DNA from: Frankiales bacterium
GTDB taxonomy: Bacteria > Actinomycetota > Actinomycetes > Mycobacteriales > SCTD01
Assembly (NCBI GenBank): GCA_025966005.1
Contig: JAOPVV010000331.1
Coordinates: forward strand, 1-39,452
Direction of reading: 5' to 3'
DNA length: 39,452 nt
In this document: one piece after another, positions 2,927 through 11,954 of the stretch
How positions within the stretch are numbered: the stretch's first letter is position 1
Layout: every line of letters begins with the position of its first letter
The notes under the pieces: model-generated
Database searches by the model: none
The model's input: only the letters and a program-made list of their open reading frames with translations
What the model was told of the DNA's origin: nothing
Translations under genes and position numbers: made by a program

Positions 2927-4654
2927 GTGCCTGCCCGTCGCACCCTCGCCCTCGCCGGAGGGGCGCTCGCCGCCGCCGTCGTCCTCGGCCTCGGAGCGAC
3001 CGCGGCCCTGGCCGGCGACGAGGTCCCCGACGGCACCCGCGTCGCCGGCGTCGACCTCGGCGGCCTCAGCCGCGCGCAGGCGGTCTGGAAGCTCGAGCAG
3101 GACCTCGACGTCTCCGCCCCCGTCCGGCTCGAGGCGGACGGCGAGCAGCTGGTCGTCGACCCGGACGACGCCGGGCTGTCGGTCGACGCCGCGGCCACCG
3201 TCGCCGATGCACTGTCGGTCGGTCCGATCGGTCGGCTGCGCTCACTGGTGGGGTCCGAGCGCGAGGTCGACGCCGTCACCGCGGTCGACGAGGCGGCCCT
3301 GTCGGTCTCGCTCACCGCGCTCAAGGAGGAGTTCGACCGGGAGGAGCGCGAGGGTGCGGTCCGCTTCACCGCCGAGCCCGTCCCCGTCCCGGCGCTGCCG
3401 GTCACCGGGCGCGAGCTCGAGGTCGAGGACGCCGTCGACGCGGTGCGCCAGGCCTGGCCGAGCACCTCGCCGATCGAGGTGCCGGTCGACGTCACCGAGG
3501 TCGAGACCACCGCCGAGGACGTCGAGCGGGCGCTGCGCGAGGTCGCCGTCCCCGCGCTGTCCGCGCCGGTCCTCGTCAGCGCTCCCGGCGGGACGGTCGA
3601 CGTCGAGCCGATCGACATCGCCAAGGCGCTGCGCATCGAGGCCGACGACGACGGCGAGCTCACGCCCCGCTTCGACGAGGCGGTGCTGCACGAGCGGCTG
3701 CGCGACCGGCTCGACGCCGTGGGGCAGCCGCCCGTCGACGCCACCTTCCGGATCGAGGACGGCAAGCCCGTGCTCGTCCCGTCGAAAGACGGCACGAGCA
3801 TCTCGCCGGCCGACCTCGCGTCCGCCGTCCTCGGAGCGATCACCGAGCCCGCACCACGCGCCGCCACCGCAGAGCTGTCACCCGCGACGGCCCGGATCAC
3901 CACCGCAAAGGCCAAGACCCTCGGCATCGTCGAGGAGATCGGCTCGTACACCAGCAACCACCCGTGCTGCCGGCCCCGGGTCGAGAACATCCACCGCATC
4001 GCCGACATCGTGAACGGCCAGATCGTCCTGCCCGGCGAGCAGTTCGACCTCAACGGCTTCGTCGGCCCGCGCGACAGGGCCCGGGGGTTCGTCGAGGCGC
4101 CGCAGATCCTCGAGGGCGAGTTCGTCGACCGGGTCGGCGGCGGTGTCTCGCAGTTCGCGACCGCGCTGTGGAACGCCGTGTTCTTCAGCGGTCTCAAGGA
4201 CATCACCCACTCGGCGCACAGCTACTACATCAGCCGCTACCCGCCCGGTCGCGAGGCGACGGTCAGCTTCCCCAAGCCCGACCTGATCTTCGAGAACGAC
4301 ACCCCGCACGGCGTCCTCATCACCACCGCCTACACCGGCACGTCGATCACGGTCACCTTCTGGGGCACCAAGCGGTACGACGAGGTGCGCGCGGAGACCG
4401 GCCCCCGGACGCGGCTGCGCGACTTCAGCACCCAGTACGTCCAGCGCGACGACTGCACGGCCACCCAGGGGGAGGAGGGCTTCGACATCGTCGTGACCCG
4501 CGTCTTCGTGGACGGCGGGCGCGTGGTGGAGCGCGAGCCGTTCCGGACCCGCTACAAGCCCGAGCCCCGCTTCATCTGCGGCCCGCCCCCGGCCAAGGCC
4601 CGCCCGGCCGCGCCGACCCCCGCTCCGGCCCCGTCGGCCCCACCCGCCGCCTGA
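2927..4654 (+). CDS. VanW/YoaR-family exported protein with peptidoglycan-binding (PG_binding_4-like) region
   Basis: AGGAG SD upstream of GTG. N-terminal signal/TM, GTRVAGVDLGGLSRAQA motif, and VanW core RVENI...PGEQFDLN...GGGVSQFATALWNAVFFSGL...HSYYISRYPPGREATV. Confidence 0.88.
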   Translation: MPARRTLALAGGALAAAVVLGLGATAALAGDEVPDGTRVAGVDLGGLSRAQAVWKLEQDLDVSAPVRLEADGEQLVVDPDDAGLSVDAAATVADALSVGPIGRLRSLVGSEREVDAVTAVDEAALSVSLTALKEEFDREEREGAVRFTAEPVPVPALPVTGRELEVEDAVDAVRQAWPSTSPIEVPVDVTEVETTAEDVERALREVAVPALSAPVLVSAPGGTVDVEPIDIAKALRIEADDDGELTPRFDEAVLHERLRDRLDAVGQPPVDATFRIEDGKPVLVPSKDGTSISPADLASAVLGAITEPAPRAATAELSPATARITTAKAKTLGIVEEIGSYTSNHPCCRPRVENIHRIADIVNGQIVLPGEQFDLNGFVGPRDRARGFVEAPQILEGEFVDRVGGGVSQFATALWNAVFFSGLKDITHSAHSYYISRYPPGREATVSFPKPDLIFENDTPHGVLITTAYTGTSITVTFWGTKRYDEVRAETGPRTRLRDFSTQYVQRDDCTATQGEEGFDIVVTRVFVDGGRVVEREPFRTRYKPEPRFICGPPPAKARPAAPTPAPAPSAPPAA

Positions 4655-4698
4655 CCTTGGGAGCTTCTCCGCACCAGGGTGCCGAGGAACCTGCGAAG
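4655..4698 (+). repeat. REP-like palindromic repeat, copy A (left end)
   Basis: CCTTGGGAGCTTCTCCGCACCAGGGTGCCGAGGAACCTGCGAAG. By hand alignment it is 36/45 identical to the reverse complement of 5728-5772, with an internal GCACC/GGTGC stem. Begins directly after the vanW-like stop codon. Confidence 0.8.
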
Positions 4699-4793
4699 GG
4701 TCGGACCTGCCCGCACGGACGGACGCGACCGCGCCGTCCACAGGAGGGCTGGACCATCGTCGGCTGACCGCGGAGCGGGGCGACCCTAGCGCC

Positions 4794-5723
4794 ATGACCG
4801 TCGCCCGCTCGGCCTCGCCGCTGCCCTGGGCGAACGTGCTCCGTCAGCAGGAGGGCGTCCTGGAACGGAGGCAGGCGCTCGCGGGCGGGCTCAGCCCTGA
4901 CGCCTGGCAGTGGCGGGTGGCCAGCGGCCGGTGGCGGCCCGTCCTGCCGGGGTGGTCGTGGGGCAGGACGTCGACCCGACGCCGGTCCAGTGCCGCTGGG
5001 CGGCCGCTGTCCACGCCGGAGCGGGAGCGGCCCTGTCCGGTGATGCTGCGCTGCTCGTCCACGGGCTGTCGCTGCCCGAGCCGCAGGTCTGCACGTCGCC
5101 GTGCCCGAGCACCGCCGGGTCGCTGCGCAGGTGCTCCCCGGCGGCGTGCGGATCCGCGTCCGCCGGGTGCGCGGGCTCGACCGGCTCGTCCACCCCGTCC
5201 TCCAGCCACCGGTGCTCCGCGTCGCCCCCGCTGTCCTGCACGCCGTGGCGTGGGCAGCCCACGACCGCGCGGGGGAGTGGCGGCTGACCGCTGCGGTGCA
5301 GCAACGGGCGGTGCGACCGGCCGACCTGCGGCGCGCGCTCGACGAGTCGTGCAGCCTGCCGCCGTCGAGACCGGTCCGGACCGTCCGGGACGACGTCGAG
5401 CTGGGGCCCACGCGGCCAGCGAGCTCGCGTTCCTGCGCTTCGTCCGGCGCCACGGCCTGCCCGCCCCCGACCGCCTTCAGCGACCCGTCCGTGCCGGCTC
5501 GCTGCGCTACCTCGACGCCTGGTGGCAGCACCAGCGGGTCGCCGTGGAGGTCGACGCAGCGCACCACCGGTCGGTGAGCGCCTGGGAGGCCGACGTCCTG
5601 CGCGGGAACGAGGTGCAGCTCGCCGGCCGGCACGACCGGGTGCTGCTGCTCCGCTTCACCACGGGCAACCTCCGACACGAGCCGGCCAGGGTGGCCGCGC
5701 AGCTCGCCGCCGCCCTCCGATGA
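4794..5723 (+). pseudogene. AbiEi-like wHTH plus DUF559/Vsr-like (PD-(D/E)xK) endonuclease gene with three single-base frameshifts
   Basis: N-terminus RQQEGVLERRQALAGGLS...GRWRPVLPG(V); ALSGDAALLVHG in a second frame; LHVAVP...LTAAVQQRAVRPADLRRAL in a third frame; then SELAFLRFVRRHGLPAP...YLDAWW...VAVEVDAAHH...LLRFT back in the first frame. Shifts at ~4950, ~5089 and ~5405. Confidence 0.75.
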
Positions 5724-5727
5724 ACGG

Positions 5728-5772
5728 CTTCGGCGGTTCGTCAGCACCCTGGCGCCGGAGATGTTCCGAAGG
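5728..5772 (-). repeat. REP-like palindromic repeat, copy B (right end, inverted relative to A)
   Basis: CTTCGGCGGTTCGTCAGCACCCTGGCGCCGGAGATGTTCCGAAGG, starting 4 nt after the nuclease-gene stop; matches copies A and C. Confidence 0.8.
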
Positions 5773-5783
5773 TGCCGGCGGGC

Positions 5784-7190
5784 TCAGGCCAGGGACCACT
5801 CCTGGCCGGCCTTGGTGTCCTTGACCGAGACGCCGAGGGCGGCCAGCTCGTCGCGCAGCCGGTCGGAGGCGGCGAAGTCCTTGCCGGTCCGGGCGGCCGC
5901 CCGCTCGTCGAGCAGCGACTGCGCGCCCCCGGGCAGGGCGGCGGCGACCACCGGCTGCCCGACCGTCCGCGCCAGGTCGAGGCCGAGCAGCGTGTCGGCC
6001 CAGGCGAACGTCTCGAACTTGGCACCCGGAGCGACCTCGTCGTCCTTCTCGAGCCGGCGCAGCACCTGCAGCGCCTTCGGGGTGTCGAGGTCGTCCTCGA
6101 ACGCGGCCAGCACCTCGTCCCGGTACGCCGGGGCGATCGCCTCCGACGGCGACTCGGCCCACGCTGCGACGGCCGTCCGCCAGCGGGTGATCAGGGCGTC
6201 GGCGGCCGCGATCGACTCCCACGACAGGTTGGCCTGCTGGCGGTAGCGCGACGACAGGAAGGCCAGCCGCAGCGCGAGCGGGTCGTGCCCGCGGGCGGTG
6301 ACGTCCTCGACGAGTACGACGTTGCCCGTCGACTTGGCCATCTTGCGGCCCTCGAACAGCAGGTGCTCGCCGTGCACCCAGTGCCCGACCACCTCGTGCC
6401 CGACAGCGCAGTTCGACTGCGCCCGCTCGTCCTCGTGGTGTGGGAAGCGCAGGTCGATGCCGCCGGTGTGCAGGTCGATGGTGTCGCCCAGCAGGTCCAG
6501 CGACATCGCCGAGCACTCGACGTGCCAGCCGGGGAAGCCGGCGCCCCAGGGGGAGTCCCAGGTCATCTCGCGGTGCGCGCCGGCCAGCTTCCACAGCGCC
6601 CAGTCGGCGTGGAAGCGCTTGCCGGTCGCGGCCGACTCCCCGGTCGCGCCGTGCCCGGCGCGCAGGTCCTCGAGCCGGTTGCCGGACAGCTGGCCGTACG
6701 CGTCGTAGGACTGCGCGGCGAAGTAGACGGTGCCGTCGTCGCCGACGTAGGCGTTGCCGCTGGCGACCAGCCGCTCGATCAGCGTGATCATCGACGGGAT
6801 CCACTCCGAGGCCCGCGGGTAGGCGTCGGCCGGCCGGACGTTGAGCGCCGCGAGGTCGCGGTGGAAGGCGTCCTCGTAGAAGCGGGCGATCGCGAACGGG
6901 CTCTTGTCCTCGAGCCGGGCCTGCGCGAGGAGCTTGTCCTCGCCGGTCGAGTCGATGGCGGTGTCGTCCTGCAGGTGCCCGACGTCGGTGATGTTCTGCA
7001 CCAGCTTGACCCGCAGCCCGCGCCGCTCGGCCGTCCGCCGGATGAGGTCGGTGAGCAGGAAGGTCCGCAGGTTCCCGACGTGGGCGTACCGGTAGACGGT
7101 CGGCCCGCAGGCGTAGACGGTCAGCAGCCCGGGGGTGGAGGCGGTGACCTCGCGGACGGTCTTGGTCTGGGTGTCGGTCAGGCGCAGCAC
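5784..7190 (-). CDS. cysS: Cysteine--tRNA ligase
   Basis: YACGPTVY..AHVGN (HIGH), NITDVGHL, DWALWK, GFPGWHVECSAM, GGIDLRFPHHE, KMAKS, and the anticodon domain SDRLRDELAALGV. The start is placed at GTG 7190 (MLRLTDT, typical CysRS N-terminus, TACCGT 8 nt upstream) rather than 7286. Confidence 0.93.
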   Translation of the reverse strand: MLRLTDTQTKTVREVTASTPGLLTVYACGPTVYRYAHVGNLRTFLLTDLIRRTAERRGLRVKLVQNITDVGHLQDDTAIDSTGEDKLLAQARLEDKSPFAIARFYEDAFHRDLAALNVRPADAYPRASEWIPSMITLIERLVASGNAYVGDDGTVYFAAQSYDAYGQLSGNRLEDLRAGHGATGESAATGKRFHADWALWKLAGAHREMTWDSPWGAGFPGWHVECSAMSLDLLGDTIDLHTGGIDLRFPHHEDERAQSNCAVGHEVVGHWVHGEHLLFEGRKMAKSTGNVVLVEDVTARGHDPLALRLAFLSSRYRQQANLSWESIAAADALITRWRTAVAAWAESPSEAIAPAYRDEVLAAFEDDLDTPKALQVLRRLEKDDEVAPGAKFETFAWADTLLGLDLARTVGQPVVAAALPGGAQSLLDERAAARTGKDFAASDRLRDELAALGVSVKDTKAGQEWSLA

Positions 7191-7390
7191 GGGACGAGAC
7201 GGTACGGCGACGACGGTCGGCGGGCTGGCCGGCCAGTCGGGACGGGGCTCGGAGTCCTGCGTGTCCGGTTCTGGACGAGCTGTCACGGGCCCGTCCCGCG
7301 GAGCGGGCGACCGCAGCCCGTGCCGGGCGTCAGGATGCGTGAGAGGTTCTCCCTGCGCTGCCCCTGCACCACGAACCCGAAGGAGTGCCG

Positions 7391-10312: not shown

Positions 10313-10654
10313 GTGACCTACGTCATCGCTGAGCCCTGCGTGGATCTCAAGGACAAGGCCTGCATCGAGGAGTGCCCTGTCGACTGCATCTACGAGGGCA
10401 AGCGGTCGCTGTACATCCACCCCGACGAGTGCGTGGACTGCGGTGCGTGCGAGCCGGTCTGCCCTGTCGAGGCGATCTTCTACGAGGACGACACCCCCGC
10501 GCAGTGGAAGGACTTCTACCGCGCGAACGTCGACTTCTTCACCGAGACCACCAACATCGGCTCGCCCGGCGGCGCGTCGAAGGTCGGCCCCGTCGACCTC
10601 GACCACCCCGTCGTGATGGCCGTGCCGCTCGGCAAGAACACCGAAGGCCACTGA
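10313..10654 (+). CDS. fdxA: 7Fe ferredoxin
   Basis: MTYVIAEPCVDLKDKACIEECPVDCIY...ECVDCGACEPVCPVEAI; GAGGAG SD. Confidence 0.96.
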   Translation: MTYVIAEPCVDLKDKACIEECPVDCIYEGKRSLYIHPDECVDCGACEPVCPVEAIFYEDDTPAQWKDFYRANVDFFTETTNIGSPGGASKVGPVDLDHPVVMAVPLGKNTEGH

Positions 10655-11799
10655 GCACCAGCGCGGCCGCGATCTCCGCCTCGGCGCGCCCGGCCGCCCG
10701 TCCGGGGTGGGCAGCGCGGTCGCGCCTGCCCGCGTTCCCCTGGGACCGGCTCGCGCCGTACGGCGAGCAGGCCCGGGCGCACGCAGGCGGCATCGTCGAC
10801 CTCTCGATCGGCACGCCGGTCGACCCGACACCGGCCGTCGTCCAGGCTGCGCTGCAGGCCGGCGCCGACTCACCCGGCTACCCGCTGACGATCGGCACGC
10901 CCGCCCTGCGCGAGGCGCTCGGCGCGTGGGTGTCCCGGCTGGGTACCCCGGTGCCGGCGTCGCAGGTCGTGCCGAGCATCGGCAGCAAGGAGACGGTGTC
11001 GCTGCTGCCCTCCCTGCTCGGGCTCACGCCCGGCACCGAGGTGCTGCTGCCCGCCCTGGCCTACCCGACCTACGACGTCGGCGCCCGCCTGGCCGGCTGC
11101 GTCCCCGTCGCCACCGACGACCCGACGTCCCACGACCCGGCGAACGTGTCGATGGTCTGGGTCAACTCGCCCTCCAACCCGACCGGCGAGGTGCTGTCGG
11201 CAGAGCGGCTGCGAGGGATCGTCGGGTGGGCGCGCGAGCACGACGTGCTGGTCGCCAGCGACGAGTGCTACCTCGAGCTCGGGTGGGACGTCGAGCCGGT
11301 CTCGGTGCTGCACCCGTCGGTCAGCGGCGGGTCGACCGACGGCGTGCTGGCCGTGCACTCGCTGTCCAAGCGCAGCAACCTCGCCGGCTACCGCGCCGGC
11401 TTCGTCGCCGGTGACGCCGCTGCGGTGGCGGCGCTGGTCGAGGCGCGCAAGCACATCGGCCTGCTGGTGCCCGGTCCCGTGCAGGCCGCGATGGTGGCCG
11501 CGCTCGGCGACGACACCCACGTCGCCACCCAGAAGGCGGTGTACGCGGCGCGCCGGACGCTGCTGCTCGACGCCGTCCGGTCGGCCGGCTTCACCGTGTC
11601 GCACTCCGACGCCGGGCTGTACCTGTGGTGCACCCGCGGCGAGGGCTGCTGGGACACCGTCGCCGCGCTGGCGTCCGTCGGCGTGCTGGTCGCGCCGGGC
11701 GAGTTCTACGGCACGGCCGGCGCGCAGCACGTGCGCTTCGCGCTGACGGCGACCGACGAGCGCGTCGCCGCCGCCGCCGAGCGCCTCGCCGCCCTGTAG
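10651..11799 (+). CDS. dapC: N-succinyldiaminopimelate aminotransferase (class I PLP); start codon uncertain
   Basis: RLPAFPWDRL, IVDLSIGTPVDP, WVNSPSNPTG, SDECY, HSLSKRSNLAGYRAGF; follows fdxA as in other actinobacteria. The only near-canonical starts before the conserved N-terminus are CTG 10651 (CTGA overlap) and ATC 10672. Confidence 0.88.
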   Translation: MSTSAAAISASARPAARPGWAARSRLPAFPWDRLAPYGEQARAHAGGIVDLSIGTPVDPTPAVVQAALQAGADSPGYPLTIGTPALREALGAWVSRLGTPVPASQVVPSIGSKETVSLLPSLLGLTPGTEVLLPALAYPTYDVGARLAGCVPVATDDPTSHDPANVSMVWVNSPSNPTGEVLSAERLRGIVGWAREHDVLVASDECYLELGWDVEPVSVLHPSVSGGSTDGVLAVHSLSKRSNLAGYRAGFVAGDAAAVAALVEARKHIGLLVPGPVQAAMVAALGDDTHVATQKAVYAARRTLLLDAVRSAGFTVSHSDAGLYLWCTRGEGCWDTVAALASVGVLVAPGEFYGTAGAQHVRFALTATDERVAAAAERLAAL

Positions 11800-11869
11800 C
11801 CCCCGGGCGGCCGTGGCGTCCGGTGTCCACGTCGCCGGAGTGAGGTCGTCCGCCCCGCCGCTGCGCAGG

Positions 11870-11912
11870 CATCGAAGGATCTTCAGCACCCTGGTGCTGA
11901 GGAAGCTCCGAA
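11870..11912 (-). repeat. REP-like palindromic repeat, copy C (solo, dapC-dapD intergenic)
   Basis: CATCGAAGGATCTTCAGCACCCTGGTGCTGAGGAAGCTCCGAA. Perfect TCAGCACC/GGTGCTGA stem; 32/43 identical to copy B in the same orientation (hand alignment). Confidence 0.8.
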
Positions 11913-11954
11913 CCCCGGCGGCGCCGGCCGCTGGCGTGGGCGGCCTGGCCGAGA

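Follow-up and report, generated by a model that had tools for sequence, protein, structure and literature searches.

What is the nature of a 1.1-kb unit that separates the convergent vanW-like and cysS genes of an actinobacterial genome, holds a single gene, and is bounded on both sides by a palindromic repeat? The unit lies in contig JAOPVV010000331.1 of a Frankiales bacterium (assembly GCA_025966005.1, designated G000 in the following), of which positions 1 to 39,452 were analysed; this whole stretch is referred to as the window. The assembly has a size of 3.44 Mb, consists of 451 contigs with 74% G+C, and is 84% complete. A preliminary description of the locus had proposed that a Vsr-like nuclease, in place of a transposase, mobilises or maintains its own family of repeats.

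Comparison with related genomes shows that the unit is a decayed one-gene cassette, composed of a palindrome, a TCCACAG motif, a gene and a second palindrome, which was inserted between vanW and cysS. The intact gene emerges from the genomes of related Actinomycetota as the low-copy partner of dispersed palindromes of 40-56 nt, two of which bracket it. The preferred reading, to which we assign a probability of roughly 0.6, is that the nuclease would act on its palindromes, drive conversion among them and home into them. The unit is a decayed member of an apparently undescribed variant of the repeat-plus-enzyme systems.

The unit is an insertion at a variable chromosomal site

Twelve loci with both the vanW and the cysS end on one contig were examined. 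In G018, G006 and G024, the last of which belongs to another genus, the two genes overlap tail to tail by 12 nt and no hairpin is present. The hairpin-free overlap in these three relatives shows that the 1.1-kb unit is an insertion. The gene of the window or its orthologue, here called the type-1 gene, occupies the site in 4 of the 12 loci (G000, G013, G019, G017). On contigs that are cut at one side, it adjoins cysS in G004, G011, G007, G014 and G020, and vanW in G002. G017 carries the gene in the opposite orientation with respect to the flanking vanW and cysS genes. In G006, which is empty at the vanW-cysS site, an intact gene is located on another contig between two identical palindromes; a native, unrelated hairpin is found at this other position in G012 and G002. 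Presence or absence of the gene at a conserved site among relatives, a feature of homing endonuclease genes, was observed.

Other content was found in five of the 12 loci: gene-free tandem hairpins of another type in G010 (L008), two metabolic genes judged by eye to be FAD-oxidase-like and ThDP-enzyme-like in G012 (L024, C106), another open reading frame (ORF) in G009 (L014), a 383-nt remnant in G015 (L011), and a 73-nt spacer with an unrelated hairpin in G021. Another ORF is likewise present in G001 (L031). The vanW-cysS junction is a general variable spot.

Metagenomic contigs from three soil runs of one study were also compared (X1 may be the source of G000; X2 and X3 are other samples). 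One X3 contig joins position 4585 to position 5783 with 23 other letters in between and looks like an empty-site relative from the same soil; this junction is weak evidence because its shorter side comprises only 24 nt.

The junctions that were read contain no target-site duplication, in agreement with the preliminary description; the 'TGACC'/'GACC' at both edges is too short to count. Insertion sequences and miniature inverted-repeat elements (MITEs) were rejected as candidates, as the cassette contains no transposase gene and these junctions show no duplication. Integron attC and Xer/dif sites were rejected on anatomy only: the cassette lacks an integrase gene and carries a full long palindrome on each side.

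The Pro/Ala-rich tail of VanW (positions ~4585-4651) is not present in the empty-site relatives, as judged from the junction comparison. Outside the hairpins, occupied sites have simple tracts, C-rich on the left and G-rich on the right (window 4585-4651; L043, L046, L044, L042), as seen with (GCCC)n/(GGGGC)n in G004 and (CCCGCCG)n in G017. The VanW tail of G000 is translated from the C-rich tract of its own locus.

The window contains three copies of one palindrome family

Are the two borders of the unit truly copies of the same repeat? Copies A (4655-4700) and B (5727-5772) are imperfect palindromes of about 46 nt that are identical at 36 positions in inverted and at 31 in direct orientation. 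The bracketing of the unit by inverted repeats of some 45 bp had been described correctly, as had the convergent flanking genes, which Pfam places on opposite strands (Table 1). The solo copy C (11865-11912), also noted previously, shares 35 identities inverted and 32 direct with A, and 33 direct and 31 inverted with B. These consistent orientation scores argue for one family with a true orientation beyond palindromy. The 18-nt core TCAGCACCCTGGTGCTGA is exact in C only and contains two mismatches in A and three in B. With up to three mismatches, the core gives six strand-matches in the window (0.06 expected) at four sites, one of which (30936) is a chance match within a coding region.

A covariance model was built from 33 copies of this type-1 family, among them A, B and C, which match by construction. 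In the whole G000 assembly the model yields four strand-matches, which correspond to sites A, B and C only. A blastn-short search with the three copies against the G000 genome found short chance seeds only, and nearly all of the 67 exact matches of the core GCACCNNGGTGC in this genome are chance occurrences in coding DNA. Further genomic copies, on which the preliminary description had staked its proposal, are therefore missing from this genome taken alone: there are three type-1 sites, all in the window. A scan of the window with Rfam at the gathering threshold had zero matches, and an Rfam E-value scan of five hairpin loci gave sub-threshold miRNA chance matches only.

It had further been stated that each repeat is itself a hairpin. 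The copies are indeed palindromic; they are also degenerate, all three retaining 14-15 of 20 family pairs, and their folding z-scores are weak (-0.2 to -2.0). These z-scores, and the fact that each hairpin abuts a stop codon, would be in keeping with a similarity due to chance or with two ordinary, independent terminators of vanW and cysS. Copy A begins 1 nt past the vanW stop codon; copy B overlaps the stop codon of the pseudogene and ends 6 nt short of that of cysS. Such an explanation is nevertheless extremely improbable in view of the 36/46 identities, the consistent orientation among the three copies, and scores of 43.6-48 bits compared to 16 bits for the next best match in the window (the three copies being part of the model). 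Moreover, the similarity between the upstream and the downstream flank of the window locus has a score of 24 compared to a median of 12.5 for other loci, and the empty-site relatives lack any hairpin.

Copy C is located between an aminotransferase gene (10372-11799) and a gene for a THDP-succinyltransferase-like protein, as assigned by Pfam. A single metatranscriptome contig (run X7, depth ~3) spans positions 4600-4747 with a C>G exchange at 4669. It extends from the 3' end of vanW through hairpin A into the spacer as far as TCCACAG, and is too thin to demonstrate transcription.

Table 1. Features of the cassette, its flanking genes and the solo repeat in the window.
Feature	Position	Strand	Evidence
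VanW-like gene, left host flank	2927..4654	+	Pfam VanW E 1.1e-39 + PG_binding_4
Hairpin copy A, type-1 palindrome, degenerate	4649..4704	-	44.3 bits; 15/20 family pairs
TCCACAG motif	4737..4743	+	between upstream hairpin and pseudogene start codon
Pseudogene, AbiEi-like winged-helix / Vsr(DUF559)-like nuclease	4794..5723	+	four profile matches, three frames; tblastn pieces
Hairpin copy B, type-1 palindrome, degenerate	5722..5777	+	43.6 bits; 14/20 family pairs
cysS, right host flank	5784..7286	-	Pfam tRNA-synt_1e E 7.9e-93 + CysS_C
Solo hairpin copy C	11864..11919	+	48.0 bits; Pfam matches on neighbour genes

The gene of the window is dead and belongs to a family with two predicted halves

The preliminary description had regarded the cargo as a gene for a winged-helix protein with a PD-(D/E)xK nuclease domain. 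This stands at the level of the predicted fold; the gene itself is a pseudogene. Its homology to relatives spans three frames (profile matches 4803-4994, 4946-5110, 5080-5409 and 5400-5717) with three frame changes located within 4946-4994, 5080-5110 and 5400-5409, and the ORF 4794-5723 is open by chance of composition. In addition, the pseudogene encodes an Ala at the position of the invariant Gly of the ExDG motif. Contigs from X1-X3 covering positions 4500-5823 differ by zero to two substitutions and contain no indels; the frameshifts are therefore no artefact of one assembly. The type-1 gene of G000 is dead. The copy in G011 is likewise frameshifted. Intact orthologues have a length of 306-315 amino acids.

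The structure predicted from an alignment of 45 sequences has a pLDDT of 86.8 and a pTM of 0.83. In this model, residues 12-206 resemble the AbiEi antitoxin 6y8q (Z 8.7, 180 aligned residues, rmsd 4.7; Foldseek E 1e-3). Similar to residues 210-313 are the DUF559 protein 3hrl (Z 7.4, 83 aligned residues, rmsd 3.9, 23% identity), the catalytic domain of I-Bth0305I (3r3p, Z 6.9) and Vsr (1cw0, Z 6.4); these C-terminal Z values (6.4-7.4) are middling. D245, E256, D258, G259, H261 and H262, which form a D...ExDG..HH motif, are invariant in the 45 sequences. At fold level, the protein is thus predicted to consist of an AbiEi-like winged-helix half and a Vsr/DUF559-like PD-(D/E)xK nuclease half.

The label AbiEi/DUF559, which had been given to the gene, is borne out by these folds and by the AbiEi models of PADLOC (E 2.6e-8 for type 1 and 5.3e-8 for the type-2 paralogue described below), which recognize the N-terminal half only. 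The corresponding Pfam models remain below threshold. Pfam and NCBIfam gave no significant family for the window pieces or for six intact orthologues; the best sub-threshold matches were MTES_1575 (E 0.011) and DUF559 (E 0.059-0.15). DUF559 (PF04480) reached 13.7 bits against a cut-off of 20.6 (E 0.059) on the C-terminal piece of the window and E 0.15 on one of the six orthologues, below the gathering score. On the same six orthologues, neither the Pfam AbiEi models nor GIY-YIG gave a match. A profile search against PDB sequences produced one chance match (E 0.23), and plasmids searched by tblastn gave none. Actinobacterial AbiEi_4/DUF559 clusters are the closest in the Atlas; 12-58% of their members carry PF04480.

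Is the protein then the antitoxin of an AbiE-type toxin-antitoxin or abortive-infection module? Its N-terminal half is similar to AbiEi, as judged from the structure, Foldseek and PADLOC scores given above. However, the cassettes hold one ORF, no AbiEii gene (PF08843) was found in the G000 assembly at its 84% completeness, and the C-terminal half is predicted to adopt a nuclease fold and not that of a toxin-neutralising domain. The single ORF and the lack of AbiEii in the assembly argue against an AbiE pair, and this alternative is highly unlikely.

Of 201 genomes sampled from the order, 111 contain the family. The gene is low-copy, with zero to two copies per genome in the genus and up to six in the order. 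The type-1 gene occurs in 10 of 20 genomes of the genus; five of these genes are intact, two are frameshifted, and three are cut by contig ends. A large protein collection contains at least 120 homologues, and most of those listed sit on contigs of only ~1-2 kb. Such contigs would fit assembly breaks at flanking repeats, but this length is usual in that collection.

Each gene is bracketed by its own pair of palindromes

If gene and palindromes belong together, their pairing should recur in relatives. In all loci that were read, one palindrome lies upstream and one downstream of the gene, a bracketing by repeat copies as in a REPtron; the two palindromes are alike within a locus and differ between genomes. 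The similarity between the upstream and the downstream flank of the same locus ranks first in 17 of 24 loci. Of the seven others, three owe their lower rank to host genes that loci have in common, and three to a compared segment that cuts the downstream hairpin. For an independent sample of the order, the best match was taken from each of 20 genomes of other genera and families, without looking at hairpins during the choice. Here, the similarity of the own flanks ranks first in 17 of 20 loci and has a score of at least 22 in 15 of 20. Repeat type goes with gene lineage, a pairing that holds across genera and still at 29-34% protein identity.

Upstream of 27 of 30 homologous genes, the motif TCCACAG is found in the sense direction, with 0.013 occurrences expected per upstream segment. 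In distant relatives there are often two, ~30 nt apart. The motif is probably an operator or another cis element.

The palindromes form dispersed families in relatives

While type 1 is restricted to three sites in G000, dispersal was observed in relatives. The type-1 core pattern was counted with a control pattern (numbers in brackets) and found 20 (1) times in G006, 16 (0) in G014, 11 (0) in G012, 9 (0) in G002, 7 (3) in G019 and 6 (0) in G011. All 18 solo copies of G006 consist of the core plus 36-38 nt of the bracketing palindrome, some with one to three substitutions in the arms. The covariance model gave 50 strand-matches in G006, 49 in G003, 40 in G002, 33 in G019, 32 each in G014 and G004, 20 each in G012 and G011, 19 in G007, 17 in G013, 9 in G016, 8 each in G008 and G010, and 4 in G000; the number of sites is about half, for example ~25 in G006, ~20 in G002 and ~17 in G019. 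There were no matches in G005, G015, G017, G018, G001 and G009. Accordingly, matches exist in 9 of 10 genomes with the type-1 gene, and are missing in 5 of 10 without it.

More distant relatives have palindromes of their own. In G041, a distant metagenome-assembled genome, the bracketing palindrome occurs in 18 copies (control 0), two of which bracket the gene. In four genomes of the Terrabacter group (G042-G045), the palindrome that belongs to three of them occurs in 7, 10, 4 and 6 copies (control 0) and shows compensatory changes in the stem; in G042-G044, two of these copies bracket the gene. The repeats flanking L074, the Terrabacter locus of G045, are different ones; the six copies counted in this genome are therefore not those that bracket its gene. 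The link between a repeat and this gene family at other loci, which had been put forward as a check, was observed: related genes lie between copies of dispersed palindrome families of their own.

G000 itself contains an intact paralogue, designated type 2 (contig C48:3754-4569, within L038, C48:3500-4800). On either side of it lie two copies of a palindromic unit of 47 nt (GCGTCCTGC...GCAGGACGC). This unit is dispersed in G000, with 20 copies on 13 contigs, four of which bracket the paralogue. Related counts in carriers of a type-2 gene are 40 (G010), 31 (G003) and 19 (G014); in G012 and G008, where no type-2 gene was found, they are 17 and 15. The control counts for type 2 are inflated, as tandem doublets fit the reversed pattern, and the matches were judged by reading. 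An ORF end beside the C48 paralogue may resemble the C-terminus of an IS5-like transposase.

The palindrome of G003 is perfect, has a length of 56 nt (CAAGATCTTCGGAACATCCACAGG..CCTGTGGATGTTCCGAAGATCTTG) and contains TCCACAG in its arms (L204-L206, L203). One palindrome pair of this genome, 1.9 kb apart, brackets a host gene that by eye is MoeB/ThiF-like.

The stems appear selected and homogenised within genomes

In the 33 type-1 copies, 91.8% of the cells are paired compared to 77.0% in shuffles, and changes on both sides of the stem occur in 110 cells compared to 39.2. None of 500 shuffles reaches the observed pairing or double-change value, and slid controls pair at 38-49%. The palindrome stems are, by this measure of covariation, selected. 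Almost no variation is seen in the inner core TC-CCCAGCA...TGCTGGG-GA; changes in the outer stem are compensated.

Two orthologous hairpin sites were examined, namely the 3' end of the aminotransferase gene, where copy C is located, and a second site. A type-1 hairpin is present at the position of copy C in G006, G012 and G014. At both sites (2/2), the outer arms differ among these three genomes, each matching the family of its own genome. Genome-specific arms at orthologous sites point to ongoing conversion or replacement within genomes. At the second site, G000 has no hairpin. The G000 copies retain 14-15 of 20 family pairs compared to 17-20 (mean 18.7) in 30 copies from relatives, which would fit erosion of the hairpins after the nuclease had died. 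With its type-1 nuclease dead, G000 has three type-1 palindromes that are eroding, and the intact C48 paralogue keeps a family of 20 copies.

At the site of copy C, G006 has extra DNA that encodes a membrane protein, MFS-like by eye (L114, C1:869794-870992). Extra DNA of 1.2-1.5 kb is present there in G006 and, by spacing, also in G012, G014, G015, G016 and G018. G000 has no extra DNA at this site and has kept the hairpin.

A nuclease that may act on its own palindromes

How could gene and palindromes be connected? From the comparisons we infer the following sequence of steps. The winged-helix half would read the conserved core TCC(A/C)CAGC, which is present as an inverted pair in type-1 palindromes, as well as the TCCACAG in front of the start of its own gene. 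AbiEi autoregulates, and the protein would probably do so too. The nuclease half may nick or cut at a palindrome. Repair from other copies would then keep all palindromes of a genome alike, and repair could also copy the gene into a solo palindrome that has been cut, using the palindromes as homology arms. Since the arms are palindromic, the gene could land in either orientation. Recombination between the bracketing copies could delete the gene and leave a solo palindrome. Hairpins located just past stop codons may double as terminators of the host. For the mobilisation or maintenance of repeats by the nuclease, as originally proposed, the argument is a comparative one.

Several points weigh against this reading. 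The copy number of the gene is low, there is no target-site duplication, and Pfam and NCBIfam give no significant family. Palindromes occur without a detected type-1 gene: G003 (97% complete) has ~26 sites, G012 ~10 copies, and G008, G010 and G016 have 8-9 strand-matches. Conversely, G017 has an intact gene and zero model matches; its variant palindrome was missed by the model and not counted separately. Seven of the 24 loci do not rank first in own-flank similarity, and in the order sample 3 of 20 do not rank first and 5 of 20 score below 22. TCCACAG is missing at 3 of 30 loci and is present at only 9 of 20 in the order sample. Because of the kinship among the genomes, the counts cannot be taken as independent. 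Finally, the palindromes directly follow stop codons, often between convergent genes, a location that fits terminators or REP-like spread as well.

The latter location raises the question of whether the palindromes are terminators or REP-like elements of the host that were spread by an unrelated route. The gene would then play no part in their spread; it might be a passenger, or encode a DNA-binding regulator or nucleoid factor that uses the palindromes as operators or insulators. By a crude ORF call, at least 12 of the 18 solo sites of G006 lie no more than 66 nt from the end of an ORF that points at the hairpin, and the type-2 copies of G000 often lie between convergent ORFs. The persistence of repeats without the gene in G003 and G012, the operator-like appearance of TCCACAG upstream of the gene, and a vanW-cysS junction that also varies for other reasons agree with such an origin. 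It would, however, leave unexplained why the residues of the nuclease motif are invariant in 45 sequences and why, across genera and even at 29-34% protein identity, every lineage of the gene lies between repeats of a type of its own. Arms that are genome-specific at orthologous sites require that the copies be actively homogenised, and no other candidate enzyme was seen; in particular, the RAYT family (PF01797) was found in 0 of 20 genomes of the genus, with a control search positive in 6 of 14 named genomes. An origin of the palindromes independent of the gene is therefore considered rather unlikely.

It is also conceivable that the system is domesticated and serves the host, like Ssn/NTS, by cutting incoming or single-stranded DNA at the repeats and thus modulating recombination or gene transfer, without being selfish. 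This alternative shares the putative steps of binding and cleavage with the preferred explanation and differs from it in who benefits. There is a precedent in the GIY-YIG nuclease SsnA, as portrayed in the main text of PMC11893778; moreover, the family is widespread, with 111 carriers among 201 genomes sampled from the order, and solo copies have long been retained at orthologous sites. In contrast, close relatives differ in whether they carry the gene, and in G000 and G011 it is a pseudogene, which fits an element that the host can do without; no link to a competence or defence gene was seen in the one-ORF cassette, and PADLOC recognizes the AbiEi-like half only. A role in the service of the host thus appears quite unlikely.

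Beyond the preferred reading, in which the nuclease acts on its palindromes, a more general claim can be made with a confidence that falls somewhat short of an even chance: the Actinomycetota may hold a third, independent repeat-plus-enzyme partnership. Its nuclease would recognize and cut its own palindromes and thereby drive conversion and homing in both orientations. Conversion would keep the repeats homogeneous within a genome and let them diverge between genomes.

The spread and uniformity of short palindromic repeats are understood only for REP/RAYT and, recently, for NTS/Ssn. If the partnership exists, the arrangement of a repeat plus a bracketed enzyme would have arisen at least three times, here with a PD-(D/E)xK enzyme in high-GC Gram-positives. 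A large set of hypothetical 'AbiEi/DUF559' proteins would gain a function, and many intergenic hairpins that are now read as terminators would be explained. As each lineage represents a natural pair of protein and target, sequence-specific recognition by the nuclease is directly testable. The window, with a dead gene and few eroded repeats, offers the natural case of what follows after the enzyme has died.

Comparison with known systems

In the REP/REPIN plus RAYT systems (REPtrons), a low-copy gene lies between two short imperfect palindromes that are also scattered in intergenic DNA. This arrangement was reportedly described in Nunvar 2010 and in Bertels & Rainey 2011. The cassettes analysed here share this anatomy; intergenic dispersal is seen in relatives and for the type-2 family of G000, with three sites for type 1 in G000. 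Furthermore, each gene lineage has its own repeat sequence in both cases, repeats are found at the 3' ends of genes, and they appear eroded where the gene is dead, which was seen in one genome here. In contrast to RAYT, the enzyme is no HUH Y1 transposase; it is predicted to combine an AbiEi-like winged helix-turn-helix (wHTH) half with a Vsr/DUF559-like fold. The copies number tens and not hundreds, the units are long, near-perfect and mostly single palindromes, and the hosts are Actinomycetota.

The similarity to the NTS/Ssn system concerns the enzyme as well. According to the main text of Chenal et al. 2025 (PMC11893778), hairpin repeats (NTS/SRM) flank the gene of the GIY-YIG nuclease SsnA, single-stranded DNA is cut near the repeats, and transformation is lowered; repeat and enzyme co-vary between lineages. 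Likewise, the gene studied here encodes a non-transposase nuclease, is located between its own hairpin repeats, which are also dispersed, and varies together with them. The two differ in that SsnA, as presented there, has a single GIY-YIG domain, whereas a two-domain protein with a wHTH and a Vsr-like half is predicted here; activity was demonstrated for Ssn and is inferred in the present case. That main text contains no mention of DUF559 or Vsr. A literature search, which left subscription journals and supplements aside, found no paper that ties DUF559/AbiEi/Vsr-like genes to dispersed palindromes.

The two halves of the protein have separate counterparts. Residues 12-206 are predicted to share the fold of AbiEi (PDB 6y8q), and an operator is likely located upstream of the gene as in AbiE; a difference is that an AbiEii partner is lacking and that the C-terminus is modelled as a nuclease fold. 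Residues 210-313 are predicted to share the fold of the DUF559 and Vsr proteins (3hrl, 1cw0) and of I-Bth0305I (3r3p), with D...ExDG..HH conserved, although the DUF559 model of Pfam stays below its threshold (E 0.059-0.15). With free-standing homing endonuclease genes, the cassette has in common its presence or absence at a fixed chromosomal site. Unlike these genes, which split their target site, it carries a full palindrome on both sides.

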